From NCBI RefSeq assembly GCF_964204645.1, contig NC_134026.1:19688150-19752149 (forward strand): a stretch of DNA of 64,000 nucleotides, given 5' to 3'. The position numbers were made by a program, and so were the translations under genes. Below, in pieces: positions 16,943 through 63,988 of the stretch. This DNA comes from Tubulanus polymorphus (taxonomy: Eukaryota > Animalia > Nemertea). Below the pieces are notes generated by a model. It searched no databases and was not told the origin of the DNA. It was given only the letters and a program-made list of their open reading frames with translations. Every line of letters begins with the position of its first letter. Position 1 is the stretch's first letter.

Positions 16943-17269
16943 CCTGATGTGCCACGAATTATTCCTCTCCCGGAGGGTGCTGCCACCTATGCAATCAAAA
17001 AATGATTGACAGTTAGTTAATTGCGTGAGAAACGCACGGGGTTTCGGAAACAAAACTTCTTCCTTTTGTTTAGCCAGAATTCCACGTATCGAAATAATTC
17101 CTCGACATTTTCATACAGTATTTACAGAGAAATTAATTTTTGAGTTAAAGACTAAAATGTTCATACCATTTTGTTCGATATGAAATTTACTTACGGCGCC
17201 CTCAGCGCTTCCGTACGTTTCCCAAAAATGGCAGCGTCCTGGCGATGACGTTTCGGAACGGATTTTGAC
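16943..17269. promoter_or_regulatory. Left part of the SLC35D/GIPC bidirectional promoter, split by the MULE insertion
   Basis: CpG-rich segment upstream of the SLC35D ATG with a YY1-like AAAATGGC (~17225) and half-CRE ATGACG (~17245). Removing the transposon leaves ~406 bp between the two divergent start codons. Confidence 0.55.
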
Positions 17270-17972
17270 GCAAAAGGTTGAAAGCCTGTTTTGGTCGATG
17301 GCGAGTGACGTCACTAGTACAAATTCCGAGCGGTTCGAATCCCACAATACGCCAAAATCACTACGGCCGCTCTGAGCGCACATCGCATTTCAACGTTGCC
17401 GTTTAATAATTGTAAAATAACTAATAATAGTTTAAGTTTTATAAGGGTTAGAAGTACATTGTATTTACTGCTAGTGTATGTATATATCATGTACGGTTGC
17501 GAGAAATCCCTGCCCTGGTTAAACAGTAAGTCCACTAAATCTTTAAATTTTAAGTTGTTTAATGAAACTATTATTGTTTTAAATTGTTAAAACTGCAAAC
17601 TATGGTTGTCGAAGATGCACCTTCTTCACATCCTTTGAAATCCTGGATAGCATCGCTGTCGGCAAAGACCTTCAGGTCTGTCTTCAACGGCACATCGCTT
17701 TGGAACAAGCGACTACTGTGTTATCAAATCTGAACTAGGTAAAAAAATGTTCCCCAAAAATAAAGACAAGTAAACGGATTAATTTGAGGTTTGAATGTTT
17801 TTGTTTATTTGTTGGTTCAAATCGAACCCTCGTCATCCTGATCTCCATAAATCTAAGAAAAGTATTCGCACACTTAAAACAATAAAATACGAGCAATAAG
17901 CAATAACATCAGACTGGAGTAAGTAACTTTACTTAATTCACAGATACAATCCTACACAAAACAATAGCTATT

Positions 17973-18212
17973 CAGTGGCGGATCCACCCCTCTATTTTTA
18001 CCGATGTAGCCGCAAATCTATGCGTTACTGAGTAAAAACCGAATGAAATCTTTCTATTAAGTAATGCTCAGAATGCACCTGCTTGCATCTATTTTTCCAA
18101 AAAATTTTTAGGAAGGGTCTTCGCGTTATCGGTGCTTGCTCTGGAATGGCTTACAGCCATCTGTTGTTGCTTTCATTTGCCCCCCCCCCTTCAAAATGCT
18201 GGATCCGCCCCT
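17973..18212. mobile_element. Short MITE relic (CAG(G/T)GGCGGATCC termini), nested in the MULE
   Basis: CAGTGGCGGATCCA at 17973 and TGGATCCGCCCCTG ending at 18212; related ends near 27810-28070 and ~6095. Confidence 0.55.
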
Positions 18213-18344
18213 GAGTGCAGACAAAATGATCGACAAAGACATACAGAACTCTAAAACAACAGTTAACAATTTAAGCAACGATAGACAAAACAGATAGCTG
18301 ATTACTTTACAAACCTGTTGTCAGAACCTTAATTATTTTTACAT

Positions 18345-18890
18345 GTACATACAGAGGACTGTTAACAATTCAACCAATGAAATTGCGATAGAGATACAGA
18401 ACATACAGCTTTAACAGTAAACAATGCAACCAATGAAATTGCGATAGAGATACAGAACATACAGCTTTAACAGTAAACCATGCAACCAATGAATTGCGAT
18501 TAACTAAGACCTACGAGCAATTATCAAGTTTGATAATTGCTCGTAGCTAAGACATACAGGACAAACAGGACTAACTTAATTGCGATAGACATACAGGACA
18601 TACAGGATTAACAGTAGACAATTCAACCAACGAATTGCGATTAACTAAGACATACAGGACTAAACCACAGGACATACAGGACTAACAGTAGACAATTCAA
18701 CAACCAATGAATTGCGATTAACTAAGACATACAGGACATACAGGACTAACTTAATTGCGATAGACATACAGGACTAACAGTAAACAATGCAACCAATGAA
18801 TTGCGATCGCGATCACAAAGACATACAGGACAAACAGGAATAAACCACAGTAAATTGCGATAAAAAAGACATACAGGACTAACTGCAGTA
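18345..18890. repeat. Modular subterminal minisatellite inside the MULE (CAACCAATGAATTGCGAT / ACATACAGGAC / TAACAGTA modules)
   Basis: About 9-10 imperfect units built from the same short modules. Confidence 0.85.
18504..18553. mobile_element. 36-bp palindromic insertion with 7-bp TSD (transposon footprint or micro-element)
   Basis: CTAAGAC|CTACGAGCAATTATCAA-GT-TTGATAATTGCTCGTAG|CTAAGAC. Neighbouring minisatellite units show the empty site TAACTAAGACATACAGG. Confidence 0.8.
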
Positions 18891-19661
18891 AATATATAGG
18901 GCCTTAGGAATGCAAAATTCATTCATTTTGTCATTTGTAAACATTCCACAACTTATTTCATTATGTCATTTCCAGTTTTCAAAGGGAATTTTCTTAACTT
19001 CAGATGCCTCGAGGACATAAACATATAGAAAGATCTGTCCCAAAAAAATGTCAAGTGTCTTTCATAGTGCAATGGGCCCTGGTTTCCACGTTTATATATC
19101 ACATATAAAATTCTACAGAAACAATCAATGAATAAGTGAAAATTTACGAATAACAAACAAGACATTCAAGCAGTTGAGTAAGTTAAAATGGGACCAATCT
19201 ATATATATTATATATGGATTATACAATTTAATCAGGGACAGCCTTGAACCGAGGTTGATGTGTCCATACACTCTCTTCATACACTCTCTGAACATGCATG
19301 TATGTATACTGCTGCCAATTGATGATAAGTCAAGGATGTTGAAGTTCTAGACATGGTCAGAATCATCCAGAGACATCGGCACGCATCACAATAACTGATG
19401 ATTTTGCAGTAACCTGTAACATAAAAAATCAAGCGGTAATCTATTCACAAAATATATTTTCCTGAAAGAAAAAACCTGAAATAGAGCACTATAAACACCA
19501 GTGCATATACATCGCTTCTTAACCTTATATATAATCGAGTAAATATATAGGTGACTAAGTGACGGTCATTATAGGCTTCTACGTTCACCATGGGAAATGA
19601 AAATATTTCTAATGTCAGGGATTCATTCGAAACCCGATCAATAATATTCTATACAAACTAT

Positions 19662-22600
19662 TTAGGAAATCGGGTCACAATGAAAACAAAACCACCTGAT
19701 ATGTTCAGGAGGAGCCTCATTGATTGGAGCACATTTCCAATGATACCATCTATGGCAATTATCACATTCAATTGAGAATGTGGACTTTTTCTTAGGATTA
19801 GCATTGCATTTTTTGTGGCAGACAGGGCAGGTTTCAGCAACTAACTGAGAAGGGGTTTTTTCAACTTTTGATGACAAAAGATTATCTAGTTTCAATTTTG
19901 CTAGGTTTTGGAGGCCTGCATTTCCAGGTTGATCTATAAGAATTTCTAATTCTTTTTCAGAATTGGAATTATTGATTTCTGTAATAGGAGAACTGTTGAG
20001 ATAATCATCTCTATTATTATAATCGATTACAATAGATTTTTTCTTATGATGATTATGTTCAATACGAATGTGCTTTTGAAGGAATGTTTCACTTGCATAT
20101 GAATTAATAACCCCATCTGCCCAACAAATAGCACATGAGATAGGTTTCAAAGATGAATGAGAAGTGGATATGTGCCTATCTAGTTCCCTGCGACATGAAC
20201 AAAGATATGGAGGATTTATTTTGTCTTTAATACAAAAGGAACAGACAATACTTTTTTCAAATAAAACAGACTTCGAGTCATTTTTAACAACTGGTATTGA
20301 CTTAATATCTTTTGGTTTGGTATCTTTTGATTTTTTTGGTAAGGATGATTTATTCTGACTTAAAATATCTGCTGAAAATTCGATATCATTGCCAGGATCT
20401 GGATCAGTGGAGTCTATGGTTTCAATTTCTGATATTTTAGCTTTTTTACCTAGTTTGATAGCAGCATTTTCAACCATAGCAGAAAAGGATACACCTCTGT
20501 TAGCAGGTCTAATTATCTTTCGCCCTCCGTGTCTTGCATTCTCAGCATCTTTAGGCATTGTAACCTTAGGGCAGTAAGGGTCTATCACTTCAAGTTCAGG
20601 AAGGTTTATGGCAACCTGATTGTCCTTGATTGGACCCTCAGCACGCCTATGAGCCATATTGTGAGGTTGTCGTTTGGCAGGTCGTCCGCTTATTAACTTA
20701 ATTCCACAGTGGCTTTCATTATGTAAAATACTTAGAATGTGCCCTTTCCGAGCAGCATTGATATCATTCGAGCTAGCAATGTGGGAATGATCTTTTAACT
20801 TATCAATGAGGGTAGATGAAACAGAAATATTTTGTCGAGTAAAATTGTAAGTTGGCAGAGGCTCCACAATGTGGAATTTATATGCATCAATTAAAGCCTT
20901 CGTTGTGGTTATATTGTTTTTTTGGGCAAAACAGGCAAAAAGATGTTTGCAAAAATATGGTTGTCCAATCATTATAAAAGCTTCACAAGTACATATACCT
21001 AGTTTCAAATTGATTAAATGGCAATTACCATCTACGTATGAAAGACAATTTTCAGGAACGATTGTAATAACGTAATTGAATAAGATACGACTGGATATTG
21101 AATCTAAATTTCCTATGTACCTTCGGCATTTTTTTGAAATGTCATATGAATGTTCCTCGGATATTGATACTTTATCGGGGAATCTTTCTTCTAAAACATC
21201 AAGCTGATTGAATGTATATTGAGTATCACCATTGAAAAAATTATCATTATCTTCTAACCTATTTAAGTTCTTTCGTGAAGAACTCTTCACAACAAACCAA
21301 TTAGTTTCTTCATCATATTTTAAAATCTCATTATTCTGTAATAAATCAAAGGCTCTTTTGCAACACTTTTCTATCTTTTCAAGGTGACGTATATTCTTAA
21401 CTCGTTGGTCAAGTTGCTTAAATTGGAGATTGTTCATATTTGTCGCTTTGATCTCATCATTAAAAACATTTTCAAACAGTAATCGTACAAAAGATGATAT
21501 CAGTTTATTTAGGTGTCCACTTAAGTAGACATCATCTATTTGTTTGAATTTGCGCTCAGTAATATTATCAGTTAATAGCAAAGGGTTATTTCTGTTAGAT
21601 TGGTCTGACTGATAAATTGATTCAGCATTGAATGCCCCAGACCAAATTTGGGAATTAAACCAATTCTTCTTTAGGTAATCAATAAATAATGTTTTTGTAT
21701 CTTGCGACATAAGGTCTAAAGAAATATCATTCTCAATAAAACTAATAAATGAATTGGCTATATCAGTTCTAGAGGAAGCATCCCATGATCTCATAATGCA
21801 TTTGAAACCAGTTTCTAGAGGCTTGCAAAATAAGCGAAGTTCTTGATTTTCATTCATGAAGCGACGAATACACTGCAGGACATGAAAATTACATAGTACT
21901 GATTTAAGATTATTGTCAGATGCTCCTTGCTTTAGACTTGCATCTTTATCATGTTGTACAAAAGGACAAAATCTAGATGTTGATGAACATGGCTTGATTC
22001 TGAAAAAACCATTGCCATCATTAAATATATAGAATTCAGATGGATGATTACATTTTTCGTCTTTACATGGTGTATTGGCTAGAACTAACTGGATGGTAGT
22101 TGCATGAGTAGCCCCCCCTTCATCACTACTAATTGATGCAGCAGCAATACGTCCTTCATTTTTGTTGTCTGCAAAAGTTACAAATGAAGTTTTGAATTTC
22201 CACGAATTGAAATCATGTTTCACGTCAATACCAATGACAGATTGTCCAAAGTTGGATAAATGTTCCAGAGAACGAGGATCAGAGAGAATAATGTGATAAT
22301 TACGTTTGAGTGTGGCATCCCCTCGTTGAAATAAAAGGACAGATTCATAGTTACCCTCTAATAATTTTTCAGTATTTCTCCAATCAGAACTTAGAATAGG
22401 TATTTCGTCTTGAGATTTCATATGTAATTTTATCGAAGATTTATCAATATATTTCAATCTATTTGAAATTTGATCTAGGGTATGGTCATGACCGGCGCCA
22501 TCATTTACATTTGATACATGAAGGTTATTGTGAGCATTGGTGGCAGAAAGAACCTTCATTGCTGTGGCTTTCATCATGACTCTATTTTCATCCCATCTAT

Positions 22601-25398
22601 CTCTAGTAGATAAATTAGGTCGCTTTTTAATTTGTAAAGGAATATTGTCATGATATTGACCATTAAGTGGTTTGCTGAAGATTCTCCACTTGGATAAATC
22701 AGTACTAAATAATACAAGTTTCGTTGCCCAATAACACATAAAATGAGGGTGAATTAATTTTTTTGGCTCAAACTGCTGCCTTAACTTCACAGGACGATCA
22801 CGTTTATTCTTCAGCTTATAGTTGTAACAGTTGGAACAAAGTGTTTCACCATCAGCATTTTTCCTCCATTTGTTAGACATGGTAATGGAGCAATGAATAC
22901 ATTGTTTATCATTTAAAACAACGTCAATTTGACATGAGGGACAATTAGTGATGTTACTGGACATATTCAACTTTGAAAGATAATATCCACATGATGATTT
23001 ACAAACTGAAGACTTTGACGAACATTTTATGAGCATTTCTGCAGCCACAAATTGAGAAGTATCCTCAACAATTGGCTCAATAAATTCAAATTTATTATCT
23101 AATCTATGGGTTTGCCAATTCTTTTTTAATGTTAAGGAAGCTTTCATCGTTGTCTGGTTACCAACAAATGAAGGCCGCACATTCTTATGCAGACGAACTG
23201 TTTTTGTAAAATCAAAAGTGAATCTATCGAAATAATATTTTGTGTCAGCACCAGTCATTACTTCCCCATTTTCAACCCATTCATCACTAAGTGGATTCTG
23301 GTTGTTGAGGTATTTCTTGATAGTGTCAATGGCTACCTGGTCATTTGTACCTTGGTCTGTACAATGAAAACTTTTATACTTCGTCTTACTGCCAGTTGAA
23401 TGAAAAGCAACTTCAAGATAATGCTTTCCTCTCCTGATGCGATGGGAGATAGTAGTTTTAGAACCATTAATATGGGAAGTTAATGGTTCAGCTGAATTTA
23501 GAGTTAATGAGGATTGAGGATTCAAAATTGAGGATGTAGATTCAGGTGTAGATTCATTATTCGAAATTGGTGTAGATTCAGGTGTAGATTTAATAGTCAA
23601 AATTGGTGCAGATTCACTATTCGAAATTGGTGTAGATTCATTAGTCAAAATTGGTGCAGATTCACTATTCGAAATTGGTGTTGATTCAGGTGTTGATTCA
23701 TTAGTCAAAATTGGTGCAGATTCACTATTTGAAATTGGTGTTGATTCATTAGTCAAAATTGCTGCAGATTCATAATTCGAAATTGGTGTAGATTCAAGTG
23801 TTGATTCATTATTCAAAATTGGTGTAGATTTAGATTTGGCTGTAGTTAAGACTGATTTGCTTTTTTTAGGGGCAATATAAGAGTCTGACATCTTTAATTC
23901 AGAACTAGCTAGTGTATTATTTGACTCAGTTGATCGTTTATGTCTCTGTCTGCGAGATAATCGTGATATCTTAGAGAAAGTAGTACTATTAGCAGTAGGT
24001 TGAGATGACTTTGAGAAGAGTTGAGTAATATCAATTAGATGTTTCATAAGCCAATTAATCAATATCAATCTAACAAAATCAGAATAGTTAGAAATGTTCT
24101 TAAGATAAGATAATTCATTGGGAGATGAAAATACACTTGAAATATCCTTTTCATAATAGGTTGCAATGCAAGCACCAATTAATGTAGCAGGGCCACAGAC
24201 AGATGAACATGATTGGAGTGGGTAATAACTAGTACAATTATTACTACATACATGCACTGAATTTTCAGTAACAAAATGAGGATCATGGAGGTGGATATAA
24301 ACAGGATCAGGGCAATTCAAACCTTTCAAAACAGATCTTAAATGATTTTTAAATTCCCTTGGACAATCCCATGCTAGTGTATCAGCATAACACAGTTTGT
24401 TACTTTTTGGGTAAAAAACTGCTAGTGCATAATGATTGGCAACAACATGTCCATAAGAATTTAGAAATACGAAATCGTTTTGGGTGCCAACATGCAGGAA
24501 AAAAATTAGTTTATCACAACTTATGAGTGGATTAGGACCGAATCTTTTATATAAATTTGAAACATATTTCTTAGCATCAAATGTAAGTGGCATCATAAAT
24601 GCATGAATATTACAGTACTGTTCATTTATCATAGATGCAAAAGCATTTAACACAGATCCTTCAAACCATTTTTGATTAGTCATCGTCTGAAGTTCTGATA
24701 CAGATACGCTATTATTATTACCAACTGGAAATTGTTGAGAGGGTTTTAAGGAAAAGAGCATATTTGAAAATGCTTGAATCTGTTCCCAATCGACTGAATC
24801 AGTGGGGCTTAAAGGCTTACTATTTACCCAAAGATTCATGGCAAAAAGATCTTGTTGTTTGGTTTTAGCATAATGTAAGAAAAGAAACCTATTAATCTGA
24901 TCAATAGAATAGCAGCCTGTATCGAGTCTCACATGGATATTAATGGAAGGGTCACGGACAATCCTTGACTGCATCTGTGCTTTTATGTCCTCCAACTGAT
25001 TTTTGTGGGGCATAGTGGGGGCATCATCAGCCAAATGACATGAATTAGACATGTCACAAATTCTGAATGACGTGACCTTTGATGGCATAACAGGAGGAAT
25101 TTTCAAAAACTGATAGTCATTGAGGCACATTTCTGTTGGATTGTAACTAAAATTTCTTCTACATACATGTTCATCATCAGAATCATTCTCATCACTATCA
25201 TCAATTATGATTGGTTCGATACCTCCACCACCTGTGATACTTAGCTGTTTTTTGTTTTCCATCCAGCTATCTTCCTGCATCTTTAATCTTTCTATCCTTT
25301 CTTTCGAACTATCTTCCTGCATCTTTTCTGCTTCCTCTATCGTTCCTTCCGAGAAATTGTCACAAGCCGCGTCCTTTCCTTCTTCCTCCATTGTCCGC
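19662..25398 (-). CDS. MULE transposase polyprotein, terminal exon (~1,911 aa): Ulp1/C48 protease, STP repeat, GATA ZnF, MULE DDE, SWIM, 2x C2H2, PHD
   Basis: Ulp1-like KWFEGSVLNAF...HYALAV...YADTL...LQSCSSVCG (~24170-24700); GATA CIHC-x17-CSNC (~22795-22901); DDE core IGIDVKH / QHDKD / LCNFH / TDNITE (~21550-22240); SWIM CTC...CKH (~20940-21000); two C2H2 (~20060-20245); PHD CPVC...CDNC..WYH.KC...WFCFHC (~19675-19830). Splice acceptor tttcag at 25399-25404. Confidence 0.9.
23535..23830 (-). repeat. Coding tandem repeat (ESTPISNSESAPILTN-like units) forming a linker in the transposase
   Basis: Repeated GATTCA...CGAAATTGGTG / TAGTCAAAATTGGTGCA units, about 6 copies, all frame-preserving. Confidence 0.85.
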
Positions 25399-25559
25399 CT
25401 GAAATACACATTATCAACTCACTTTTTTTAGACATATGAATAGATAGAGTATGAAATTACCCATATAGGCCTAACATAAAACATGGGTATCTCTGAGTCA
25501 TTTGCATTAAGTCATTTAGATTTGTAGGTACTAAATTAATTGAATTATGTTGTACTTAC

Positions 25560-27355
25560 ATTTCAGTATGGTTTAAACTAACATGGTCTAGAAGATCTTT
25601 CCAATTGGTGAATTCAACTCCGCAAAAACATGTCGAGTCAGCAGGATCCGTCTGTGGATGAATAACCTAATGTGGAAGAGCACATTAATCTGTTTTTGCT
25701 TCAACATCTAAGCAAAAATAACAAAAATGAACCCGCGTCTCGCAGAAAGGGCATCAAACTTACATGTTCCACTGACTTCCTTTTTCTGTTAAATCTTTTA
25801 GTATTGTGACAACTTCTATTGTAGCATCCCTGAATATGAAAACAAAGCTTTACAGCATAAATCATACCAATACCAATGAATTTCTATAATTTCATTTCGA
25901 GAAACATATTACTCACGTTCTTAGTCTGATAAAAAGGAGTAAATAATTGAGGCTTTAAACAAATAGCAACACCAGCCACATCAATTTTAGTCATGTACTG
26001 GAAAAAAAAGACAGATTTGTGCATGCACAGCCTTTAGGTAATTGTGAAATAAAAGTGACCAAACTAATATTAAATCATAAGTTCTTGAGATGATATGTAC
26101 CTGGTCGAATGTGAAAAAGGCTCTTTGATCTTCACAACAGAATTGTTTCCTTGTATGATGCGCAACGTCAAAACTGCTATACTGGATTGAAGGATACAAA
26201 AAACTGTTAAAATATATCTAACTTTATAAAGATAAATCACGTACAAATCACTTAGGAAAACAACTTTACCACTATTGTTGAATCATCCCATGCTCTTGCT
26301 TGATCATCCTTCAATTTGTTTTTTGCTATCAGCTATCAATATGATTCATTAATTCAATGCAAGGATTTTGAATAAAGTGGTTTCGTATTCAAGTTATAAA
26401 AACTAATTGCAAATCATTCATTTTCTAGGATATCAATGCTAAATGATTACCTTTCGTCGATGGACTGCTCTACTTCTTTGCATCTTTTCAATCTCATATG
26501 GAAAGTATTGAGGGCACCTGATTAAGAATCATTCATTATTTCCAGTACAATCATAAAATTTATGTAGTTTGCATACCTGGTAATTGGATAAAATAATGCA
26601 ATTCTACGTACATTTCATCTTCATTTTTCAATAGCAGTAGTTCCATTATCCTGTTATTTATGAACTGATTTCCCTTACGGCTGGGGTGTAACAAGTCAGT
26701 CCTAGATCACAAAATTTAGAAAAAAACAAGTTAGTTTAAATCGCGAAAAAATGCACATAACCTACTGGGCTTATTAAGATTAAACGATTACTTACGGTGA
26801 AAGGAGATCTCTTGAGAAGTGAAAATCAACGAACTTTACACCAAGTGTAAAGCATTCGCGGTGCAGCATTTCATTGTAATGAAATATTTTTGTGTCAGCA
26901 TCGAAACTTTAAAAAAGAAAGAAATTTAAAAATCATTACATCGATCATAAATATAGTACTTCAAGAAAAATCTATTCTTGATACTTACTCATCACATCGA
27001 GGAAAAAGAGCTGGTACAATGATGGTCCCAGTACATTTATAGAGCAACAATCGAATTAATTCAACGTGTCTTCGCAGAACAATCTCAAGCGGGACATCAC
27101 GCGTCATATTATTTGTTCCAACATGGACGATTAGTTGTTCCACATTCAGCATCTTCACCTTTTTCAATTCTGTAATATACAACTAATCAGTAACCCAATG
27201 AAAATGAACAATATAAATCAGTACTGAACCGAGAAATTACCTTCCATCAATGTTTCAATGGTTCCTCCGGGGCACACGATCCTTGTCCATTCAAATAAGC
27301 CTACACCATCTAGCCCAGCATACTTTAAAATGCTGTCTGCTACGAGACCAATACG
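25560..27355 (-). CDS. Upstream exons of the MULE gene: SGNH/GDSL hydrolase domain plus C2H2-type fingers
   Basis: Exons 27241-27355 (IGLVADSILK block I; CPGGTI block II), 26989-27169 (LIVHVGTNN block III), 26796-26906, 26612-26701 (DLLHPSRKG block V), 26451-26517, 26270-26332, 26101-26181, 25917-25997, 25764-25829, 25560-25666 (CFCG..F....L..H....H). All are GT-AG and in frame with the terminal exon. A candidate start micro-exon ending in ATG|GT lies at 28292-28310. Confidence 0.75.
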
Positions 27356-29548
27356 CTACAAAAAAGATTATTTGTCAGTCTCAGGCCAATATCACAGGGA
27401 GGTGTGAGAGAGCACACTGGTTACTGTAAGACCCTACTACATGCAAAAGAAGTGACACATATATGTATATCAATGTGATAGAATTGATTGAAAAAATTGT
27501 GCATAATAGTAGCTAGTGCCCAAAAATAGAACACAGTGTTATTGAAGTGAAAATTTCTAAAATCCTCTGAAGCGGTGCTTATTTGGTAGCTACATGGGTA
27601 TTCTAATTGAATAAGCATAAAGATAAGCGTGCACACACAGTAGCCTATGCATAAACAAGGGCCAGTTTCACCTTCACCTAAAAGTCCTGCAGTGTGAAGA
27701 CTAACTTGTTCACCTAAACCACCTCTACCAGGCTGTGGAAGGCCTAACATCAGGCACTAAATTAAAAGATTCCTCTAAATCAAATTATCTATAAACATCC
27801 TCTTAATTGCAGGCAGACTGATTCAGGGAGGGGTGCAGCCCAAAATAGGGCATACATATCAGTATCATATATAATTAAAAATCAAAAGGGCACCAGATCA
27901 TCAGAAAACATAATACCTATATTTTGGAAGTAGGCCTACAGAGAACATGTTTTGGAATATAAGCTTTTTAAAAATACTTGTTGATATTTTTAATTTTTCC
28001 TTTAAATTTCATTGCGACTTAAAAGTTTTAAGGGGTGTACACCCCTGTATACTCTCCTGATCTGCCCCTGAATTGCCACTTAACAAAATTTCTCAGCTTA
28101 ATTGTTGGCTAACTAGCTCAGTGAAACTGGGACCAGACCTAATGCATACACCCTCAGTGGCCAGGGCCAGGATTAAACAGTTAGGCTACGTATATAAATA
28201 AAGGAATGAAAAGTACTTATCCTGAAATTGGTTAGGCTATCTATCTGCAACAAGAAATACATTTTCATTGACTCTGAATACAGGGAACTACCATTCTTCT
28301 GTTTCGAGGCCTTAAAATTTATTGTTTATTTTTTGTTGCTGGATTTGGAATGGTTGTTGGAATATTTAAGGCCTAGTAGGTGGTGACTGTGTACGGGCAA
28401 CATAGGCCTATACCCAGTGGCATGGCAATGGCATGCCACTGGGTACCCACTACTGCACTATAGTATACTGCCTACGGCTACTGCGACTGGTGGTTCGGTT
28501 GGCAGAAATTACTTTTTAACATGGGGGGGGGGGAGGGGGGAAGTAAGCGTGGATGAAGACAAATTAATTTAGCCGAGTAAGTAGCAAGCAAGTAAAGTAG
28601 TGGCAGTACAGTAGGCCTAGCGACAATGTGAGTGTGGTGGTAACGTGGCCGTGGTGGCAATAACAAGACTCCAAAACTGGCAAAAGCCAAAATTAAAAAG
28701 CCCTGCCGCCGCGCGGTCGCGACGCCTCGCCTGCACCACCGTGTAGGGTAACTCCACGTAATTTCGGAAGACCACGTAATTTCGGAAGTTTTCTTCTACG
28801 GCCTCTCAGCAGTCGCGTAGAGGGAATACCTATTCGGACGAGCTTAAATTTGAAAAAGGGGAGGTAGGTTGGTATTTCCTGGGAATTCCACGGAAATCCG
28901 CGCCGTTTTGATGACGTAGTACGCATTTCTTCCCGGCACACGAAACCAGCGAAGCAGGAGATAAAAATCGGTCATGTAAGTACATTATTGATTGCCCCAT
29001 TTTTACGGCATTTCGCGGCCAGCTGTTATGTAAACACTACTAAGAAGTTCTAGGAAGTAAAAAGTTTGTTTATAAACATTCATTCGCTATTGGAATACGG
29101 TCATTGATGAAATATCAGCGATTTTTAGAAACTCGCTCGCCTACACATAATTTCGGATATCGTATACCCGGTTATTCTGGCTCGTTCACGTAATTTCGGA
29201 AGTTCCGAATTTATGTATAGATGGTATTTGTGTGTGTTTTCTCGGTAGTCTATCATCAAACAGGCCTTTTTCTGAGATAACTGTCACAAAAGAGTGCATA
29301 CTGAAAACAAATGCAAATTGATTCATCATTTTAGCCCCAGAGCCTAGGCCTATAACCTAGTCTCCATAACACAGTTATCAGTAGGCCTAAATTATGAAAA
29401 TGCCATTCTGAGATCAGGTTGTAACTAATAACATGTGATGATATTTACTAAGGAAAATAATTAAGGCTTATTTATAAAAGAAAATGAATTCATTTTATTA
29501 TTATTTTTATAATCAACATGATATTTACAATGTTTTTTATTTTTAAGT

Positions 29549-32500
29549 ATGTCAAAAGTGTATCGGCGTTGGACAGAAGTGCAAATGGGTGAAGCTGTTG
29601 AGGCTGTTCAGAATGGGATGTCAATATTATCGGCAGCAAAAAACTTTGGCGTACCAAAATCAACATTACATGACCGAATAAGTGGGAAAATTCCTGCAGG
29701 AAGGAAACTAGGTCGACCGACGAATCTGTCTGAGGCAGATGAATCAAAACTTGCGGATTTCGCGAAAAACCGTGCAGACCTCGGTTACGGTTTTTCAAAG
29801 GGAAATCTATTGAAATATGCGGGTGATCTCGCCTTAAAAAGGGGGACACCATTTAAACAGGTAGGCCAACGATTTTCACTAAAAGGTTGTTGTTTATCCC
29901 TTATAATTAATACTGGTATATATATTTTACTTTTAGATTATCCCGAGTGACCAGTTCTGGGCTGGCTTTAAAACTAGAAACCCCACTGTTGCACTCCGAA
30001 AGCCAGAGGGCACTGCGGCAATCCGACATCAGTGCATGAATGTTAAGAAGGTTGGAATGTTCTTTAGATCGGCCACAAAAGTATTGCTAAATGCTCAACC
30101 GATGCATATTTGGAATCTCGATGAAACTGGCGTTCAGTTTTCTCATGTCCCCGGAAAAATTGTTGCACGGTAGGCTTTGAACTAAATTAGCCTATCATTT
30201 AAATACTTCAACTGTTGGTCTATAAATAGCCCTTATCAAACCCAAGTTATTAAGCCCAGCAATATTCTAATGAGTTGTTGAAGTATTTTTAATTTCCGAC
30301 TATCAGCAATCATCCAGATACAGAAACTCAATACCACAGTCATAAAACAACAGATTTAGGAATGAACGTTATAACGATGAAAATTTTATTTTCAAAACTC
30401 TTATTTACAGAAAAGGGAGCAAGTATGTTCAATCTCGAATCAGCGGCAATCGCGAAACAGTTACGATCATGGCATGTGGAAATGCTGCTGGGCAGATGCT
30501 GGCCCCTAACGTTATTTTTAAGGGCAAGACGGCAGCATCATTACTCTCAGTTGACACAATGAACGCACCGGCAGGTACGACAGTTTCTGTATCGGAGAGT
30601 GGTTGGACGAAACAGGTAATTAGTTGTCAGTCACATTTTGAATCAGGCTCCTGAAGTGAAAAGCATTGTCAAATTTCATGTATTCATGATTTCAACAGGG
30701 AATTGCAACGATTTGGTTTAAGAAAAATTTTTTACCTGCTATTGGAGCGGCTCGTCCACAGATTTTGATATCCGATGGACATAACAGCCACAATTTTCTT
30801 GAATTGGTCGAGCTGGCAAGAGAAAATGGAGTAACACTGTTAGAATTACCAGAACATACCTCACATTGGTTGCAACCTTTAGATCGGTAAACACACTTCT
30901 TACAGATTTTATTAAAGAATACATCTTCCAATGAAATTAGACCTCAACTGACTAATTAATGTTTCACTTTCTTTGAAGATCATGCTTTAAGACATTGAAA
31001 GCATCATGGAATCGCCTATGTTTGAATTTTCATAACGAAAATCCGGGACGTATAGTGAACAAAAGTTGTTTCTTTGAGATCTTCAGACCAACATGGCTCA
31101 GTATAACCCCGGAGAACCTTATAAATGGTTTTCGAGCATGTGGTCTTTTTCCATTCAATCCCGAGATCATTCCCAAGGAAGCTTTTTTACCATCAAGCAC
31201 AAGAGTTGCTGATGTGGTGAGTTACTGAATAATAAGTAACCCGTATTGCCCTTAATTGAGGTTAACTGTACCTACATGTTTTTTTTTATAATGGGTTATA
31301 GGTATCAGATCCTACAATTGAAACGATGCAAGATCCATTTTCAGGATTATCGAAGGTATTTTTCTCGTAAAACTTGCACAAAAATCTAAAATATATCTAA
31401 GAGAACCTAGTTCCATATATATTATCAAATGTAAAGATGAAAAAAAAAAATTTTCTTCACATTACTTTTTACTTAGGAATCTGCATCTAATGTATTGACA
31501 ACAGTTGAAAAACCATTTCGTGAGGTGTGAATAGTGATTTAATTTCACTTCAACTTTTTTATGATTAATTTAATTTGTTTAGATTGTTTTTGGACTAATG
31601 ACCTGTTCGAGTGTTTGTTGCATTGTGTGTTACAGTTTCTAACCTTTTTCATGATCATTGATTTTTTCAGTCTCTCAAGTCCAAGCACAATATATCCTTT
31701 TCAAAATGATAATTGCAGATTTTATTGATGATTTCAAATGGATGAGATATTTTAATTTGTGAATTGTTTTATAATCTTCTCAATCAGTGGTTGACCATAT
31801 TATTTTGTAGACACTGCCTATAACTATCGATGGTCATTCCATTGCCTTAAAGGCAATGGAATCAGCCATTTCCTCGGAAATGAAGAAAAAATTTGAAGAA
31901 CGATACACCGAAGGCTGTGACTTGACTAATGATGCACTGTATTCAGCATGGAAAATTTTGAAAACTAAATCATCAGCTGAAGTTATCGATAGCTTCCCGA
32001 TCGAAAATAACTCATCCCCAGGTAAGAGTTAAGATCATTTTTAAAATAATGATAATACTTATTCGCCATGTAAATATGCAGTATAAATAATATATAATTA
32101 CAAACAAATTGCATATACTTACTGATTAATTTTGATGTACTTAGCTGATCCCGACAATGATGTGCTGGATTATCCCGTACTGATGCCAACTGAAAAGAAA
32201 AGAAAACGCGATGATAAGCGTTATTTCATTCTAACTGCGGATGATGCATATGCAAATGCGGTTTCAAAACAGAAGTTGAAAGAACAAAAAGAAAAGGAAA
32301 AACTAGAAAGAAGGAAAAAGAAATGTTTGACAACGGTAAGTTTAAGAACAGTTCTACGATTCATATCAAACGGTGAAAAACACACATCATAAAGAAATTA
32401 ATTCAATAATTAATAAAAACTCTTGCAGGCTTCAACAAGACCACAAAATGGAACTTGCTCCATTAATCCTGTAAGTTGAAAAAGATCTCTTGAAATGAGC

Positions 32501-33286
32501 AAATTTAATGAAAATAATATTCATACTTTGTATTCCTTTATTGTTCAGGCTCCATCAAGACCAGACAAGGAAAAATTAGCCGTAGTTCATGTGAGTAAAA
32601 AAATATGTTATATGTGTTCACTTTCGTCAGTTTATTTGTAATATGAGTAACTGAGGTACCCGGTAACCGGTAGGCTAAAATTATATATAAGTTTATTGAA
32701 CAAAAATTAAACCGTTTAATTAAAATTTCATATTGAGAATGGCTATAATGTGTAATTCTGAATTTCAGGATCCTGTGCCTGAGACAAGTGGTGTCAACAT
32801 GGTTTACGAAATCAACATAAGGTAAATAACTTGCTGCGCTTCTAAATATAAAATATAAATATCTAGTCACTAGTGATGAATAATTTATTTGTACCGGGGT
32901 ACTTACTTTGTAGTGAAGGTTCATATATTGCCCTTTATCAGGAAGGTGAGAAGCGCAGGAAGCACTTATACTTTGGAGTGGTATGTATTAATCGGCTGAA
33001 TTATTTTATCTGAAAGGAAAAATACAATTCTCCTGTGATTGTTATGTTTAACTGCTTGCAGATTCTAGAGATATTGGACTTCGGAGAAGTAATATCCGTT
33101 CAGTTTCTTGAACAACACTGCAAGAAAAATTTATTCGTTTGGCCCGATGTGGATATTATCGAAGAGCATCCCGTTGAGAATGTACTGAACAACTTGAAAC
33201 CGCCTGAGGTGGTAAATACGAGGATGCAGATGGCATTTCAAGTTGATGAATTTTCAAAGACTTGCGATTTGTTCGCTTGCATGTAA
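29549..33286 (+). CDS. pogo-type transposase (HTH_psq + CENP-B/Tc5 HTH + DDE_1) split into ~14-15 exons
   Basis: Exon 29549-29860 HTH_psq ([36 protein letters not shown]); 29937-30169 IWNLDETG; 30411-30615 [10 protein letters not shown]...PNVIFKGK...SGW; 30699-30886 SDGHNSH...[13 protein letters not shown] (35 residues between D2 and D3); 30979-31216 [12 protein letters not shown]. The small downstream exons to the stop at 33286 are less certain. Confidence 0.88.
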
Positions 33287-33344
33287 TAGGCTTACTACGT
33301 TTTGTTACGTAGAGAGGCCTTAAAGTTGTATTGCTATTGTATTG

Positions 33345-33555
33345 TATATACGTGTGTGCGTGTGCGTGTATCTATGTATGTGTGTATGTATTTATGTATG
33401 TGTGTATGTATTTATGTATGCGTGTATGTAGTTACCAAGTATTTATGTATATATTTATGTATGTGTGTATGTATGTATGTATTTACCAAGTATTTATGTA
33501 TGTGTGTATGTATTTATGTATGTATGTATGTGTATATATGTAGGCCTATGTATGT
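33345..33555. repeat. (TATG)n/(TG)n compound microsatellite in the pogo 3' region
   Basis: Directly visible low-complexity repeat. Confidence 0.9.
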
Positions 33556-34608
33556 TTGTTTTTTGTTACTCTTTTTGTTACTCATCTAGTCTTAAAAATG
33601 TTTATAAATAGTGCAATAAAAATTTATTACTTTCTGTTACGCCTTTTAGGCCTACATTACATGTTAGTTAATCAGTTTATTACATGTACCTTCTCGACGG
33701 TTGCTGCATTTCTAACGGTCTTCCTTTTATCTTGGTGAATTGGGATTACCATATCCACCATCTAGTAGGCTGTAGAAATTCATACAATTGCTGGAAATTC
33801 CACTCGGATAAAAAAAATATTTATGGGATTCGAACCCAAATGGTGTCTTGTCCCTAGATGTTTCTGATCTAACCAGCTGTTACTAAATGCTGCCACCCCT
33901 GTAGAAGCAATTAGTATAACCCAAATACGTTCTAGCCTAGTTTCATAGAACGCATACACAAAAATAACGAATATATGCATTTCCGAATTTATGTTGACTA
34001 TTTCCGAAATTACGTAACCCGGGCTTCCGAAATTATGTTGTCTCTATAAATGTCTCATACTGGTAAGTTATTTTAATGGATATATTTCAAATCGATTCTG
34101 GAGTAATATTTGGAAGCAGAAATATCAGGCTGTAAAAATATCCACCTTCCAACGGCATTTGTTCATGTCGAAAATCATCCGTCAAAACAGCGCATCCGAA
34201 AATACCTTCCGAAATTACGTGGAGTTACCCTACGATCCTCGCGGCGTTCACCAGTGTTACCCAGTGAGTTTTTTATAATCTTGCAATCTACCTCTTTTTT
34301 CAAACCAATATTCCCACCAACTGGTCCGGAGACAAGCTTAACACGTTCGGAAAACATGATTCACAATCTTTTAATCAACAGCCAGCAAGAATACACTTGA
34401 CAGAAAATTCAAATTCAGCGGTTAACCGTTAAAAGTGAGTTGTTTAGCTGTGGGAGTAACAAAAAGGCGATCTTGATGACGTCACTAGCCATCGACCAAA
34501 ACAGGCTTTCAACCTTTTGCGATTTTGACAAATAAAATCGTTTTCTGGCGCGATTTCGATAGAATTTACCGACTTAGGAACCTCTCGTGGTCGAGTAGTT
34601 TGTTAAGA

Positions 34609-37600
34609 ATGTCGTTATTCGGAAAGAGGAAGGGCAAGAAGAAAGATTCGCCGCTTCAGGAACAACCGCCGTCTATGATGGACGGCGAATATGGCACCAC
34701 ACCCCAAAATCACCAGCAACAACAACAGCAACACGCTAATGGGTCTGCATCATCAGCAGCCGCGACAGGAGCAGCAGCAGAAGGCGACATGAACAAGGCA
34801 AGGCCAAAATTCCAGTTCCACTGCCAATTGGCGCAGGGCAGTCCGACCGGTATTATTAGCGGATTCACAAATGTTAAAGAACTCTATTTGAAGATTTCTG
34901 AATGTTACGGAATCGATGTGAAAATGGTAAGCATACTCCATGCCGATGAACAGGTTTACTTCCTTGTTTGTTTCTTGGAAAAATATGTATTTCTTTAATT
35001 TGATTCATTGACAAATATAAATGGTGTAGTTGGCCTAATAATAGCCTATTCATTATCAATCATGTATTCATCCATTCCATGCAGTAAAAGTGGTAGAACT
35101 TTTGGTATGAACTGCCGTACTCTTTAAGCCTGTTTCCATAGACTGTTGATATGACTGCAAGTAGAAACCCTCTTGTCCGGATCAGTCTTCTTTCACTTTC
35201 AATGAAGCCTAATCTGGACCATGAAAGTCTGATTCCATTGACTCTTATAGACTACTTTTACAATCCATTGTCTCCAGATGAGTCCAATTTCGTCCATTGA
35301 TCCAGATATTACTCTCAGCCCACCTATAAGCCTAACTTAAATAAATGTGAAATAGTGTTAAACCTGATTGGCATTCAGGAATTTGCGTCTCAGGAAATTC
35401 ACACGAAAAATCCTCATTATCATACGTAGCCTAATACTAATAGCTCATTGCCAGTTGATTTCTATGTAGGCCTATTACAAGTTTGTTATTCTGTAGTAAA
35501 CTCCAGGGTCCCTACAGGTCCTTGATTCCTTGTAAACCCCAATCTAAAAGAATATTTTTCAAGGTCCTTGTCGAATAGGCCTACCCTTTGATTTGAGTGA
35601 AGTGTCCAAAAGTCCTAGAAAACTCCTTGAATTTTGAGAATGGGAATTGGCAATCGGAAATTTAGGAAATTCACGCTGTAGGCAAACTTGTTCCTGTGTT
35701 AGTTTGTGTCTTTCACTGATTCTTTACTCAAAATCTTAGAAAAATATCCGGGTTCTTTCACTTGCGGGTTTGGATAGAATTTGGCATGCGGTTCTGTCAT
35801 TTTCATAGAGCCTAACAAATACTTGGGAATTTCATATAGGACGATGGTTATTTCTGTACAAAATTATGTAGTTCATCCAAAGCTGATGGGTGCAACTCCC
35901 ACCGCAACTGTTCTCGTGTAGACGAAGAAAAGAGCCAGGGAGTGGATTCGGGTGATTTTAGAGTAATGGGTGGCAGATTCAGGTGGTTCGAGTGCTAATG
36001 GGTTAATGAGGATTTCTCCTTTTCCTGAGCCCAGACAGTTACTGTAAAGTATAATGGTCCCGTTTGTCGACATCAGTTAACCGCCTATGTTACTGTACCA
36101 TTTGGAAAATATGTGTTAACGTGAAAAATCGGTAGAATTGGTATTTTAATGTGAAAAAGCGTGAAGAAAACCATGTGCAAAATGTGGTGTGCGAACTATC
36201 TAGGGTTCATCAATCCTTGCTGCCACTGCCGGTCCAGTCTTCTGTGACACGAGGTCGTTTCATCCGATGAGTAGATATCCGAGAATCAATCATATTGAGC
36301 ACTGTCTTCTGTGGCAGGGGTTCATTCATACCATGTGCGAAATCGAGTGTAATTTCATGAATCGGCCTTACGTGTCAGTTTTCATCAATTCAGCAGAAGC
36401 TGGTTTATAAAATGGGCCTTTTAGCTAACTACCATGGTAACAATGCTGATCAAAACCACGAAGCCTTTGTCATTGAAATTAAGTATTCATATTGATTATT
36501 ACGAAAATTCGTAATAGTTTCTACCTAATTCGATTTGTTGATTCAGCTAGAATAACAATGTTTCATAAGCCTAATAATAGCTTCACCATCTCATTCAGCT
36601 TCACCCCCATGGTCCTTTCTGAATATTCTTCAGACTGTGGAGATAGCCTATGTTCTTCAAATCACGTTGTAAAAAAGAGTTGTATTGACAAAGTAAACAG
36701 ATTGTTGGTTTCAATTGCCCTCAATCATGTGAAGCTATCCAACAAATAGGGTCTGAATTTCTGAAAATCATTCCATAAACACGGAGAACAGTGGCCGCGA
36801 GTTTTAGCATCAACTCAGATTTTCCGTGGCATGGAAACTTCGTGTTTGGTTTCTTGATGCTGTTTTGCCTGTCAAAACCGTACCTTAATCCAACTGAATG
36901 CAGCCCCTCGTACAATCAACAATTCATTTTGGAATAGATGACACTCATATACAACACATCAAGATGCTTGTGTATTAGATACATGTGTCTCGGCGCTACC
37001 GTCATAAGTTTGACGTGTGCGGATGTTTATTGATCGGTTAAATTTAGATCGAAATATAGCAATAAAAAGCAGTGACTATATATTGTTGGAGCGATTCAAG
37101 GTTCTAGACGTAGGTGCTTTGGGAATGGTTCCTCCGTCAGTCCTATCTGTGAGCTGGTAGACCTTTCTTCGTACTATCCACCTGTCGTTAAGGCCTGCGG
37201 TTTATCCTGGAGCAAGATCTGAGGGTGTTGCCAAATATTTTTAAAGAGTAATTAATGAGAAAAGAAGCAGTGCCGTTTTGACCCATTAGGCCTGCGGGAT
37301 TTCTAACAAAATTGTGCATTTTTATAAAAAAATGCCCTTTTATGTTTTATTTCTTTTTCAACAAAATAATATTTTGCCCTTTTTGAAAAAAAACCCTTCA
37401 GTTCAATGGACACTCAAAATTTCGAGGGTCTTACTGAAGTCTTGTAAGCCTGCTTAGAGCTAGTGTCAGTCATAGATAGTGTTAGGCTAAATTAGAACGT
37501 TCAGTTCGTCAGGAGATACATGTATTTCATTTAGACAGGCGTGGCCACACGCAGTCTTGTGGGTCTCTTACGATATTCTCAGATACTGCTGCGAGTTTTT

Positions 37601-60035: not shown

Positions 60036-63000
60036 ATGGAGAAGTTTACGGTTGACTTGGATAAAGTGTTGGATGATTTTGAAGATGGTAAGACAGGAGT
60101 ATTATATCCAAAGACAGGGTTTAAGGAAAGATCCACACCTCTTGTAGCCTAATCGATGTAATCTATTGAATTTGATTTCTTTGTCTAGGACTCGGAATGT
60201 CTCCAGCGGTGCATCAATCCACTAGAAAGTGTCGGGATTGTGAAAATTTTTATCTTTCTCAAATTGATTGGCTCACAAAGTTCATTTCAGTGAATATTTG
60301 TGATGAGTCTGCATTTTAGAATTACATAATCCAATGTCATATGATCCCCCTGTTTCAATATCTCATCAAACATCAATTTTCTCATTGATAAATCCATTAT
60401 CAGAAATCTATGGCCTACTGAATAAGAAAGTCAATATTATTTTTTGTATCAATTGAATAACCAATTAGTGGTTATTTTTTGGATTTGGAAGCCTTAACCC
60501 TTTCAAGGTTATCCTTATAAGTGCTGGGCCCAGTTTCACAAAAAGGTTTAACTCTTAAATCGATTTTTTAATTTCTTCATGAATTCAGTTTATCTTAAAT
60601 CGATTAAGGCCTTAATCCTTTTCGTGAAACTGGGCCCCGGAGATAATTTGATGACAATTTAAAAAATTCCATCAATACTGATTTATTGCATCTACACTAC
60701 GGTGCAATGTATTGTTAGTTATTAATATTTCAGTTATTAATATTTCACTTTGTTTGACAGGTGCTGCCGTCTTTCAATAAAGAATAAAACTAATTATAGG
60801 CCTACACCGCGATGCAATGTCCTAGTAAAGTCAAACCAATTTATACACTGCAGTGTAGATGCACTGAAAGGGTTAAAATGAAGTGTGCCAGTACCTAATA
60901 GTGTCTCCAGTAAACTGTTTGCCTAAAACAATTCTTTTAGAAATTCCTAACTTCGAAAAGCAGTTGATTTAAAGAATGATTAACGATACGATTACTTATA
61001 GCTGAGGAAGAAAACAGAATTCACACCATCTCGATGGCAGACTCTGAAAATGCAAATCCATCAAATAATATTGTACCAGTACTCAATAATAATAACCTGC
61101 AGCAGCGGCAACAGGATTTAGGCGTTGTCCGTTGCAGAAACAATTTGAACGAATGCGTCAATATAGAAGACGGTGCAGCTGAATCAAACCAAAATTCGGA
61201 TGAAACGACGCACGACGAGACAAAGGAATCAACGAATAATAATTTCCAACAGATATCGACTGCGGAAACTGCGAACGATAATGCCTCGCTATCTTCTGAC
61301 GACGGTTACAAGATACAAAATAATCACGCGATGGACGTCACGGACTACGCTAATTTCGTAAACGCGTTTCGATTCGAAAACGGTTCACCTGCGGGTGGTG
61401 GCGACGGTTCGGAGCGCGAGAAAGCCGACGCAGCCGTCGACCAAGCTCCGACGAATAAGATCGAAGCGGCGATTGGTATCGAAACCGAAGATCGGAACGA
61501 TGATTTGCGTCCACTGAGCGATGCATCAGGCAAAATATCAAAAAATGAAATTAACGTTAACGCCGGCGCTTCGCCCGATCTTAGTTTAATCGAAACAATG
61601 GCGAGCATGTCCGTCGAGCTTGACCCGAAAAACGTCGCCTCTTCGGACGGCGCGCAGCGTGATGAAACTACCGAAGTAGCCGACGAGTGGGGTATGAATG
61701 ATGTCGATAACGCTCAATTGAATATAGATGGCGCAAGTACCGCGAATAAATCGGATAATATTCGCGACGATACGGAACGGTTAACCGATGTTAAAACGGA
61801 ACCGCCGGTTTCAGCAGTGGCGTTCGACGGCACGGCTATCGCCACTGCCGAGGAGACATCGGTGAAAAAGAACATGGCCGAATTCAACGCAAACAACGTC
61901 GCAGCCGTAGGCTTCATCAATACGAGTGACGTAGGCGTCGATGACGCCGAAATGGACGCGTATTTATCAGATTTGATGATTCCCGATAACGTTCCGTCTG
62001 CCCCACCCGCAACCGAGCACGCGACGACATCGCTCGCCAAGGAGATAACGAACACCGCGGAAGAACCGACCTCGGAGACTCGGTCACGACTAGTTGCTGA
62101 AAACGCCGCAGATGAGTCCGTCGATGCAGTCGCCTCTGAGGACATCAAATCAACGGAGGGTAACATTGGGAATCGCGGCGTCGACTCTCGTTTACCGCTG
62201 CAATCACCGTGCCCGTATTCGTATCCGATCACTACTCCGATTGAGAGTCCGCCGCGACTCGCCTCACCGCAGAATAATTCGTCGGAAAAAGTGGAGTATC
62301 TCGACAGTAAAATCGACCGAGCGGACGTTACGACTGCGACTTTTTCGCGATCGGATGATGACGCGTTCTTTCGAGGCGATCCTCGAAAAATCAACGAACT
62401 CGTCGACGTGATACGTAGCGATTCTCGAGAAGTACCGACCTGCATTCGGCCTAAAACGGCCGTTACCACAGTGACAGCCGCGACGCCCGTGCCGGCTGTA
62501 TCATCGGTCGCAGCGGTGCGGATACCGCGGCCTAATAGTCTGCTTGGATTATCGAAACCGATTTTACCGAACGAAATGTCGTGTTTCGTGGAGAAGCGCG
62601 ACAAAGACGGGGATGCAGCGTCCGGGGTTCGCGAAGATGTCGCGGACAGCTCGAGAACCGTCGTCTGCGTCAGAGATATTGACGATGATTCTATGCAGCC
62701 GGCACCGTCGTCGTTGTCCCCGTTGCGACCCCCCGGGTTAAGCCGGCCGGCCGCGCGGCCGAATTCGTTTCCGATGCCGTCGCCGACGAACAACAAACTA
62801 AAACGTCCGACGAGTTTGAATTTGATGCCGCGTGACTTCAATAGCGTTTCGGCGGCTTCCGGGAACGACGACGAATCGGGTGGCGCCGATTTATCTTCGG
62901 ATCTATCTAATGATCAAACTACTCCCCCGTCATCGCAACAATTACAGCAGCAGCAGCAGCAATCTGAATCGACCCCGGACGTAGAACCAACTCCTGATAT

Positions 63001-63791: not shown

Positions 63792-63881
63792 GTAAATACC
63801 ATCGGACAAAATATATGTTAGGGCGTGTAATCTATTTTCTTGCTAGTCGAATACTTGCAACCATGCTAGAGAAAAGCAAAG

Positions 63882-63988
63882 TTAACCCCTTGGTTTTTGA
63901 GCCCAGATGCCAAGCTGTAACAAAAATTGCCACGTTAATTAACCCCTCGTTATTAACCCCGGATGCCAAGCTATAACAAAAATTGCCA
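63882..63988. repeat. Short imperfect tandem duplication (TTAACCCC...GATGCCAAGCT.TAACAAAAATTGCCA)
   Basis: Two copies of GATGCCAAGCT(G/A)TAACAAAAATTGCCA at ~63906 and ~63962. Confidence 0.7.

Follow-up and report, generated by a model that had tools for sequence, protein, structure and literature searches.

An ORF1p-type SGNH esterase domain in the transposase gene of a probable Rehavkus-like DNA transposon of the nemertean Tubulanus polymorphus

In a 64,000-nucleotide stretch of the genome of the nemertean Tubulanus polymorphus (contig NC_134026.1, positions 19,688,150 to 19,752,149 of the forward strand; hereafter the window, numbered from its first letter), four minus-strand exons specify an SGNH domain that has its catalytic Ser, Gly, Asn, Asp, and His, inside a DNA transposon bounded by terminal inverted repeats (TIRs) and a target site duplication (TSD). 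As judged from sequence comparison, the nearest solved relative of this esterase subfamily is the esterase of the open reading frame 1 protein (ORF1p) of the zebrafish long interspersed nuclear element (LINE) ZfL2-1. We consider it probable that an ORF1p-type SGNH domain is here spliced to the giant transposase exon of a young Mutator/Rehavkus-like TIR transposon, where it is predicted to act as an N-terminal, lipid-binding, and weakly hydrolytic accessory module.

A first-pass annotation, made from the sequence alone, had described a complete SGNH/GDSL esterase in four exons at 26577..27355, carried by a cut-and-paste DNA transposon. The sequence does contain the four exons on the minus strand as well as all four motifs, and the exon limits were taken from spliced contigs, so that the interval holds except at its lower limit, 26577 lying 35 bases into the next intron. 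Contigs of four public sequencing runs (X1 to X4) were compared with the window and, together with annotated proteins, supplied the evidence about other copies; X1 is DNA-like, and X4 was treated as an RNA or cDNA library solely since its contigs carry GT..AG joints. The following exon limits were fixed by the spliced contigs of X4 together with script computation on the sequence.

27355-27241, minus strand: SGNH exon 1, with block I (VADSI; Ser30 codon at 27334-27332), block II (PGGT; Gly52 codon at 27268-27266), and Met59
27169-26989, minus strand: SGNH exon 2, with block III (HVGTNN), comprising His76 and Asn80 (27113-27111), and with Pro113
26906-26796, minus strand: SGNH exon 3, with the family-conserved Asn132
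26701-26612, minus strand: SGNH exon 4, with block V (DLLHP), comprising Asp160 (26697-26695) and His163 (26688-26686)

In the window itself, RIGLVADSI..CPGGTI, HVGTNN, an intermediate segment, and DLLHPS can be read in four minus-strand frames, the motifs being spread over three of the four exons (1, 2, and 4). Block III reads GTND in the spliced contig, where a C at 27110 gives Asn81Asp. Single exons were too short for Pfam (best E 0.16), and annotated proteins in which the exons are joined pass the cut-off of PF13472 Lipase_GDSL_2 (32.9 bits), namely, P0009 with 35.0 bits and P0015 with 39.2 bits. Here and below, P0001, P0002, P0009, P0012, P0013, P0015, and P0016 are labels for NCBI protein models of T. 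polymorphus.

Downstream of the domain, the X4 joints lead through six small exons into the exon of the transposase.

26517-26451, 26332-26270, 26181-26101, 25997-25917, 25829-25764, and 25666-25560, minus strand: six linker exons with X4 GT..AG joints
19662..25398, minus strand: last exon, 5,737 nt including the stop codon, an open frame with its acceptor at 25398

All 12 minus-strand joints of X4 are GT..AG, and they link 28217 to 27756, 27678 to 27355, the four SGNH exons, the six small exons, and the 5,737-nt last exon. The resulting frame is open for 2,232 codons; its translation from Met59 is identical to the NCBI model P0013 over 2,196 of 2,196 residues, and P0016, from another locus, differs from it at 3 residues. 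The linker exons also agree with P0013, and the last of them (25666-25560) holds a C2H2-like CFCG..HVSLNH motif. In the X4 contigs, the SGNH exons are thus chained by splicing to the transposase exon.

The giant exon encodes a weak Ulp1-like region, a Ser/Thr-rich repeat, a GATA-type finger, a DDE-like core, a CxCx12CxH motif, C2H2 fingers, and a C-terminal PHD finger (Pfam 25 bits, cut-off 24). Searched against the PDB, a profile built from four transposase relatives (A1) matched GATA at 6e-13, the PHD finger of TAF3 at 4e-10, and, weakly, Ulp1 at 0.0098 over 49 positions; Pfam scans of the large open reading frame (ORF) of the element found no reverse transcriptase. By eye, the translation appears to contain the Mutator order D, D, CxxH, E (GIDVKHDF, HDKD, LCNFH, TDNITERKF) and CTCx12CKH. 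Feature neighbors of the core in the Atlas are MULE/SWIM clusters at 0.92, which we take as a lead only. The relatives of the transposase at 36 to 41% identity are two proteins of Patella caerulea and one ENA protein, and a Patella relative has a subthreshold match to ZSWIM1-3_RNaseH-like (E 0.045). Within the giant exon, a Ser/Thr-rich tandem repeat was also observed at 23512-23833 on the minus strand, with units such as ESTPISNSESAPILTN that are ~88 to 92% alike in DNA, between the Ulp1-like region and the GATA finger.

The ends of the element that contains this gene could be placed as follows.

17261..17269: left TSD, GATTTTGAC, identical to 34521-34529
17270-34520, gene on the minus strand: whole element, with TIRs and TSD
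17270..17313, plus strand: TIR at the gene-sense 3' end, 44 to 45 nt (from 17269/70), 98% complementary to 34477-34521
18347..18874: subterminal tandem repeats lying past the stop codon and ahead of the 3' TIR, from Tandem Repeats Finder (TRF) and self-blastn
34477..34520, minus strand: TIR at the gene-sense 5' end, 44 to 45 nt (to 34520/21), from an inverted-repeat scan
34521..34529: right TSD, GATTTTGAC, identical to the left copy

Without a nested insertion described below, the element measures ~11.76 kb. Its TIR arms differ by one mismatch, and its TSD is 9 bp long, or alternatively 7 bp (ATTTTGA) if the terminal C/G is assigned to the TIR. The subterminal repeats are short (2 to 2.5 units) and lie ~1 kb from the TIR: TRF delimits, at 18364-18737, a 56-bp unit repeated 2.5 times and a 77-bp unit repeated 1.9 times, and self-blastn reveals diverged further copies of the units. 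The boundary is also visible in the reads, a single-copy DNA contig ending at 17269 and high-depth contigs beginning at 17273. Depth in X1 is 27.7 in the unique flank versus 570 to 633 over 19857-27840, a ratio from which we estimate ~21 copies of the element. Moreover, one 4,109-nt X1 contig with a depth of 570.7 covers 23737-27840, i.e., the start of the transposase exon and all small and SGNH exons, indicating that the domain is no add-on of this copy. Carriage by a DNA transposon is thus confirmed by the position of the SGNH exons between the TIRs and TSDs. Absence of the region from other copies had been named as an observation that would speak against this carriage; the SGNH exons instead stand, together with the transposase exon, at ~20 times the single-copy depth.

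NCBI models of pieces of the element occur at at least 18 loci on several chromosome-size contigs, and three loci share 2,196-residue models that differ at 3 residues. Copies differ from one another by ~0.1 to 0.2% at the protein level; the changes within the domain are L37I, E56V, N81D, R84C, and N184D, none of them at a catalytic residue. Between 25399 and 27355, copy variants comprise 4 single-letter changes in exons versus 6 plus 3 indels in introns (~960 versus ~1,000 bases), numbers too small to show selection in copies that are too alike for dN/dS. Two further observations concern other copies and the surroundings of this one. A DNA-like contig of X2 skips 993 bases with a joint at 25888|26882 whose ends are not those of an intron; this internal deletion, which matches the NCBI model P0002, has cost the copy the latter half of its SGNH domain and most of the linker exons. 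Beside the 5' TIR, an open frame at 34489-34998 on the plus strand encodes a GIPC1-3 GH1 domain (E 5.6e-13), from which the transposon appears to lie in or adjoin a GIPC-like host gene. An apparent joint 17313|28745 on opposite strands in X2 and X3 was rejected as a rearrangement, the last 41 letters of the contig being the right TIR misplaced on the left one.

The label of Mutator-like element (MULE) given by the first-pass annotation was not retained as such, the Pfam MULE and SWIM models being without match and the anatomy fitting Rehavkus, a relative of Mutator. A 9-bp TSD with 44-bp TIRs agrees with the Mutator pattern, in which TSDs range from 8 to 11 bp (Dupeyron et al. 2019, PMC6446971). 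Rehavkus elements are described as having a 9-bp TSD, TIRs of 26 to 400 bp, one ORF, a PHD finger, and a minisatellite before the 3' TIR, in arthropod and annelid hosts (Dupeyron et al. 2019, PMC6446971, Table 1). The element of T. polymorphus shares with them the 9-bp TSD, TIRs whose length falls within these limits, a single transposase ORF that includes a PHD finger, tandem repeats ahead of the 3' TIR, and an invertebrate host; it differs in its 11 short 5' exons, in its nemertean rather than arthropod or annelid host, and in its esterase, none being listed for Rehavkus in that description. Rehavkus is therefore the closest described group, a likeness of structural anatomy drawn from the published description rather than from Repbase sequences.

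For the esterase domain, a phmmer search of P0009 against 1.84 billion representative proteins (threshold E <= 0.001) returned 51 proteins, two of which are the element's own clusters, leaving 49 relatives. Only the two own clusters fall below E 1e-10; the best match outside them has an E value of 2.8e-7 at 33% identity, and identity of the domain to every relative found is at most 36%. Protein searches by word matching, run with exon 2 and with P0009, gave the own clusters only, and scans of metagenome contigs for relatives of the transposase (profile A1) and of the SGNH relative P0024 found nothing. In an alignment of P0009 with 47 of the 49 relatives (A2; 48 rows, the fragments P0054 and P0065 being left out), Asn80 is invariant (48/48), Gly52 is Gly in 47 rows, Ser30 is Ser in 46 with gaps in the other two, His163 is His in 44 with gaps in the rest, and Asp160 is Asp in 33; the residues conserved at 90% or more are Ser30, Gly52, Gly78, Asn132, His163, and Gly168. 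AlphaFold2 on A2 gave a mean predicted local distance difference test score (pLDDT) of 78; across most of the domain, the means per block are ~90 or higher (a prediction made from P0009 without alignment, with a pLDDT of 41, was not used). Foldseek with the A2-based model found 174 matches in the PDB at E <= 0.001, and those listed are all SGNH/GDSL hydrolases or design scaffolds, headed by 4rw0 (E 6.9e-9, TM 0.74 by target) and including platelet-activating factor acetylhydrolase (PAF-AH) Ib, Escherichia coli TAP, and ZfL2-1 ORF1p (22% identity).

Within this fold, the comparison with solved structures points to the transposon-borne subfamily. ORF1p-type esterases are known from the non-LTR (long terminal repeat) clades CR1, L2, and RTEX as well as from some Penelope-like elements, and the structure was solved for zebrafish ZfL2-1 (PDB 4c1b), whose active site comprises S143, G165, N195, D279, and H282, with H191 and S228 conserved exclusively among the esterases of transposons (Schneider et al. 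2013, PMC3905857). As a single sequence, P0009 matched in the PDB only the OSK domain of Oskar (E 0.03) and 4c1b (E 0.16), the phmmer alignment with the latter extending over blocks I to V. The A2 profile matched 4c1b with 137.8 bits (E 3.4e-39) versus ~78 bits (E 5e-21) for the best cellular or bacterial SGNH proteins, a bacterial sialate O-acetylesterase and PAF-AH Ib. When P0009 is left out, a profile of the 47 relatives gives it 136.7 bits, a score to be expected from the choice of these relatives by their likeness to P0009; the 4c1b score alone was taken as independent evidence of the subfamily. The transposon-specific His (H191 of ZfL2-1) is matched by His76 in IVHVGTNN and is His in 38 of the 48 A2 rows. 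Twenty of the 49 relatives have the domain at or close to the C terminus, preceded by at least 100 residues, which is the layout of ORF1p; Pfam found reverse transcriptase, endonuclease, or CCHC domains in none of the 49. An Atlas look-up returned metazoan GDSL clusters, some with zf-CCHC or RT_RNaseH members, again as a lead only. Altogether, the margin of the A2 profile in favor of 4c1b and the transposon-specific His bear out the earlier assignment of the domain to the ORF1p type.

Translation of the whole domain depends on the 5' part of the gene, for which three exons come into consideration.

27678..27756, minus strand: alternative 5' exon (X4 joint 27355|27678, contig depth 111.7)
28217..28244, minus strand: further alternative 5' exon (X4 joint 27756|28217, depth 32.3; loose ends at 28240 and 28244)
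34357..34292, minus strand: predicted first coding exon, MFSERVKLVSGPVGGNIGLKKE, in phase 0 with a GT donor, inside the element near the 5' TIR

Immediately ahead of RIGLVADS, a TAG closes the SGNH frame, whether the DNA is left unspliced or exon 27678-27756 is spliced on, so that an upstream coding exon is needed for the whole domain. The exon 27678-27756 ends in a TAG in the SGNH frame and contains an out-of-frame AUG with a 47-codon upstream ORF; the 26-letter loose end at 28240/28244 is absent from the window. The upstream ORF runs, in another frame, into the beginning of the SGNH frame and might limit translation of the transposase. The exon 34357-34292 matches residues 1 to 22 of P0009 at 100% in tblastn, and P0009, which is annotated at another locus, joins exactly 34292 to 27355. 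Together with the other 11 coding exons, it yields 6,765 nt, or 2,254 codons, with no internal stop. Ahead of Met59, the family-conserved residues Asp29, Ser30, Ile31, Lys33, Cys50, Pro51, Gly52, Thr54, and Ile55 are kept, and the 36 open codons that hold them argue for translation until recently. From these features, we infer a start at the ATG of exon 34357-34292 and a putative 2,254-residue protein with the whole domain.

Several observations weigh against the proposed ORF1p-type module in a Mutator/Rehavkus-like transposase. The spliced forms seen use exon 27678-27756, so that no in-frame AUG precedes Met59, which itself is located past blocks I and II; a start there gives a product without the Ser and Gly blocks, and the NCBI full-length models also start at Met59. 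Hence, of the esterase that had been called complete, the catalytic residues are all encoded, but in the transcripts seen the blocks with Ser and Gly precede the first in-frame AUG. The join 34292|27355 is supported by one gene model elsewhere, the read comparisons having covered only positions below 34292. The chain from the SGNH exons into the giant exon is assembled from several overlapping contigs, no single contig spanning it. In the domain, the position of ZfL2-1 Ser228 is occupied by Pro113 (Ser in 35 of the 48 A2 rows), the Gly of the GDS motif is replaced by Ala (ADS), and a ZfL2-1 S228A/H191F double mutant is inactive (Schneider et al. 2013, PMC3905857). On the transposase side, the Pfam models MULE (PF10551), Transposase_mut, SWIM, and C48 gave no match at E <= 10, with the whole protein as with six pieces of it. 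Last, none of the three models of cross-species transposase relatives (two from Patella caerulea, one from ENA) contains SGNH, and the 49 SGNH relatives have no further part in common with the transposase.

An alternative would be that the SGNH exons mainly make a separate short esterase of ~215 to 270 residues, an ORF1-like accessory protein produced by alternative splicing, the fusion to the transposase being a minor read-through product. NCBI models at several loci do end soon after the domain: P0009 has 268 residues, and the terminal ..STIVQF* of P0001, P0012, and P0015 is compatible with an acceptor located 5 nt downstream of 26181. X4, however, contains only the joint 26181|26270, with the frame open into the transposase exon, and several of the short models derive from copies with truncations or deletions, P0002 for instance reflecting the 993-bp genomic deletion. 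We therefore consider a mainly separate esterase unlikely.

The start at Met59 leads to another reading, in which the domain is vestigial: translation from Met59 would leave a half-domain with neither nucleophile nor oxyanion Gly, without an esterase role and serving at most as a structural N terminus. The 5' exons in spliced contigs, which close the frame ahead of RIGLVADS, the Met59 starts of the NCBI full-length models, and the departures from the family (Ser228 to Pro, Gly to Ala) are what such a vestige would predict. Nevertheless, the 36 codons before Met59 are open with their family-conserved residues, the element itself includes an ATG exon that is in frame and has a GT donor, and a gene model at another locus uses this very exon, which makes us doubt that the domain has lost its function, a reading to which we give slightly less credit than to the short esterase. 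That the SGNH exons are a recent host-gene fragment or an independent insertion beside the transposase is most improbable, for although their gene-like exon-intron structure differs from the intronless 5.7-kb exon, this reading is contradicted by their depth, which equals that of the transposase exon in one contig, by their place inside the TIRs, by their presence in gene models of many loci, and by an identity of at most 36% to all relatives with no closer Tubulanus protein among the 1.84 billion representatives (next match at E 2.8e-7, 33%).

The ORF1p-type domain in a transposase can be set beside the esterases of other mobile elements. GDSL esterases have been reported in LINE ORF1, Penelope-like elements, rotifer LTR elements, and Terminons, and capture of a host SGNH gene by a Helitron has also been reported. 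With the ZfL2-1 type, the domain shares the SGNH fold, the catalytic Ser, Gly, Asn, Asp, and His, the His before GTN, the Ile after Ser, the Thr in GTN, and the Leu before His. It differs by its three introns, by Pro in place of Ser228, by ADS in place of GDS, and above all by its location: in ORF1p, it is C-terminal, behind a coiled coil and upstream of reverse transcriptase, whereas here it forms the N terminus encoded by a DNA transposase gene. The Oskar OSK domain (PDB 5a4a and 5cd9) is the best single-sequence PDB match of P0009, as given above, and the Pfam OSK model reaches 23 bits in P0015, below the cut-off of 27, and also matches 11 of the 49 relatives. The OSK domain is not known to have the catalytic residues, and it binds RNA; the domain described here, in contrast, keeps all catalytic residues. 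Vesta LTR retrotransposons of bdelloid rotifers and Athena retroelements carry GDSL esterase ORFs (Rodriguez et al. 2017, PMC5408684), which likewise are SGNH/GDSL accessories with intact catalytic residues shared between element classes. Those are separate ORF3s that do not cluster with LINE esterases in the tree of that paper, unlike the LINE type fused here to a DDE-type transposase. In the literature searched, which did not extend to Repbase reports, no description of an SGNH domain in a Mutator or Rehavkus element was found.

We propose that a single gene would yield the multidomain transposase of an element moved by cut and paste, and that translation from the ATG of exon 34357-34292 would place the whole SGNH domain at its N terminus, the domain having probably been acquired from a retrotransposon lineage. 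ZfL2-1 ORF1p binds acidic phospholipids and liposomes and has a low acetyl-esterase turnover, and a Gag-like, membrane-targeting role in retrotransposon ribonucleoprotein biology has been discussed for the SGNH esterase of LINE ORF1 (Schneider et al. 2013, PMC3905857). By analogy with ZfL2-1 ORF1p, the domain may bind acidic phospholipids and slowly turn over small acyl esters, hydrolysis here being a prediction from the conserved residues. In this way, the domain would recruit the protein to membranes, for example the nuclear envelope, instead of acting on nucleic acid.

A second, nested element interrupts the first intron of this copy.

28746..34230, plus strand: nested pogo-like transposon, 5.5 kb

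Its arms form a perfect 28-nt inverted repeat, 25 nt of which are TIR, and a TA duplication flanks it at 28744-45 and 34231-32; it encodes HTH_psq (2e-12) and DDE_1 (1e-7). In X1 to X4, the loose end behind 28745 corresponds to window positions 34233-34262, which implies that the nested insert is absent from most copies of the host element. Its DNA depth of ~180 versus ~600 for the host element suggests ~6 to 7 copies. In the spliced contigs, its transposase gene has at least 13 short GT..AG introns; because a pogo-like gene in the same contigs is so interrupted, introns are weak evidence of the old capture of the esterase that the first-pass annotation had suggested.

Elsewhere in the window, an exon-like frame with a matrixin (Peptidase_M10) domain (E 6.8e-31) was found at 1447-1965 on the minus strand. 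A 679-codon open frame without a Pfam family lies at 60980-63019 on the plus strand, opposite a 399-codon frame at 61714-62913 on the minus strand, both where the G+C-richest part of the window begins (0.50 in 62001-64000).

The presence of the same esterase subfamily as an integral part of a recently active DNA transposase suggests that its benefit to mobile elements is not tied to RNA packaging or reverse transcription. A wider and more speculative view, which we consider unlikely, would make it a portable module independent of reverse transcription and exchanged among LINEs, Penelope-like elements, LTR elements, and DNA transposons, which would act at membranes or germ-granule-like sites to reach germline nuclei and would be needed for efficient cut-and-paste transposition of this element; the germ-granule part of this idea stems from the likeness to the OSK domain of Oskar. 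Our analysis also extends the giant multidomain transposases of Rehavkus-like type to nemerteans. A cut-and-paste element may, moreover, constitute a simpler system for learning what the esterase does for mobile elements.

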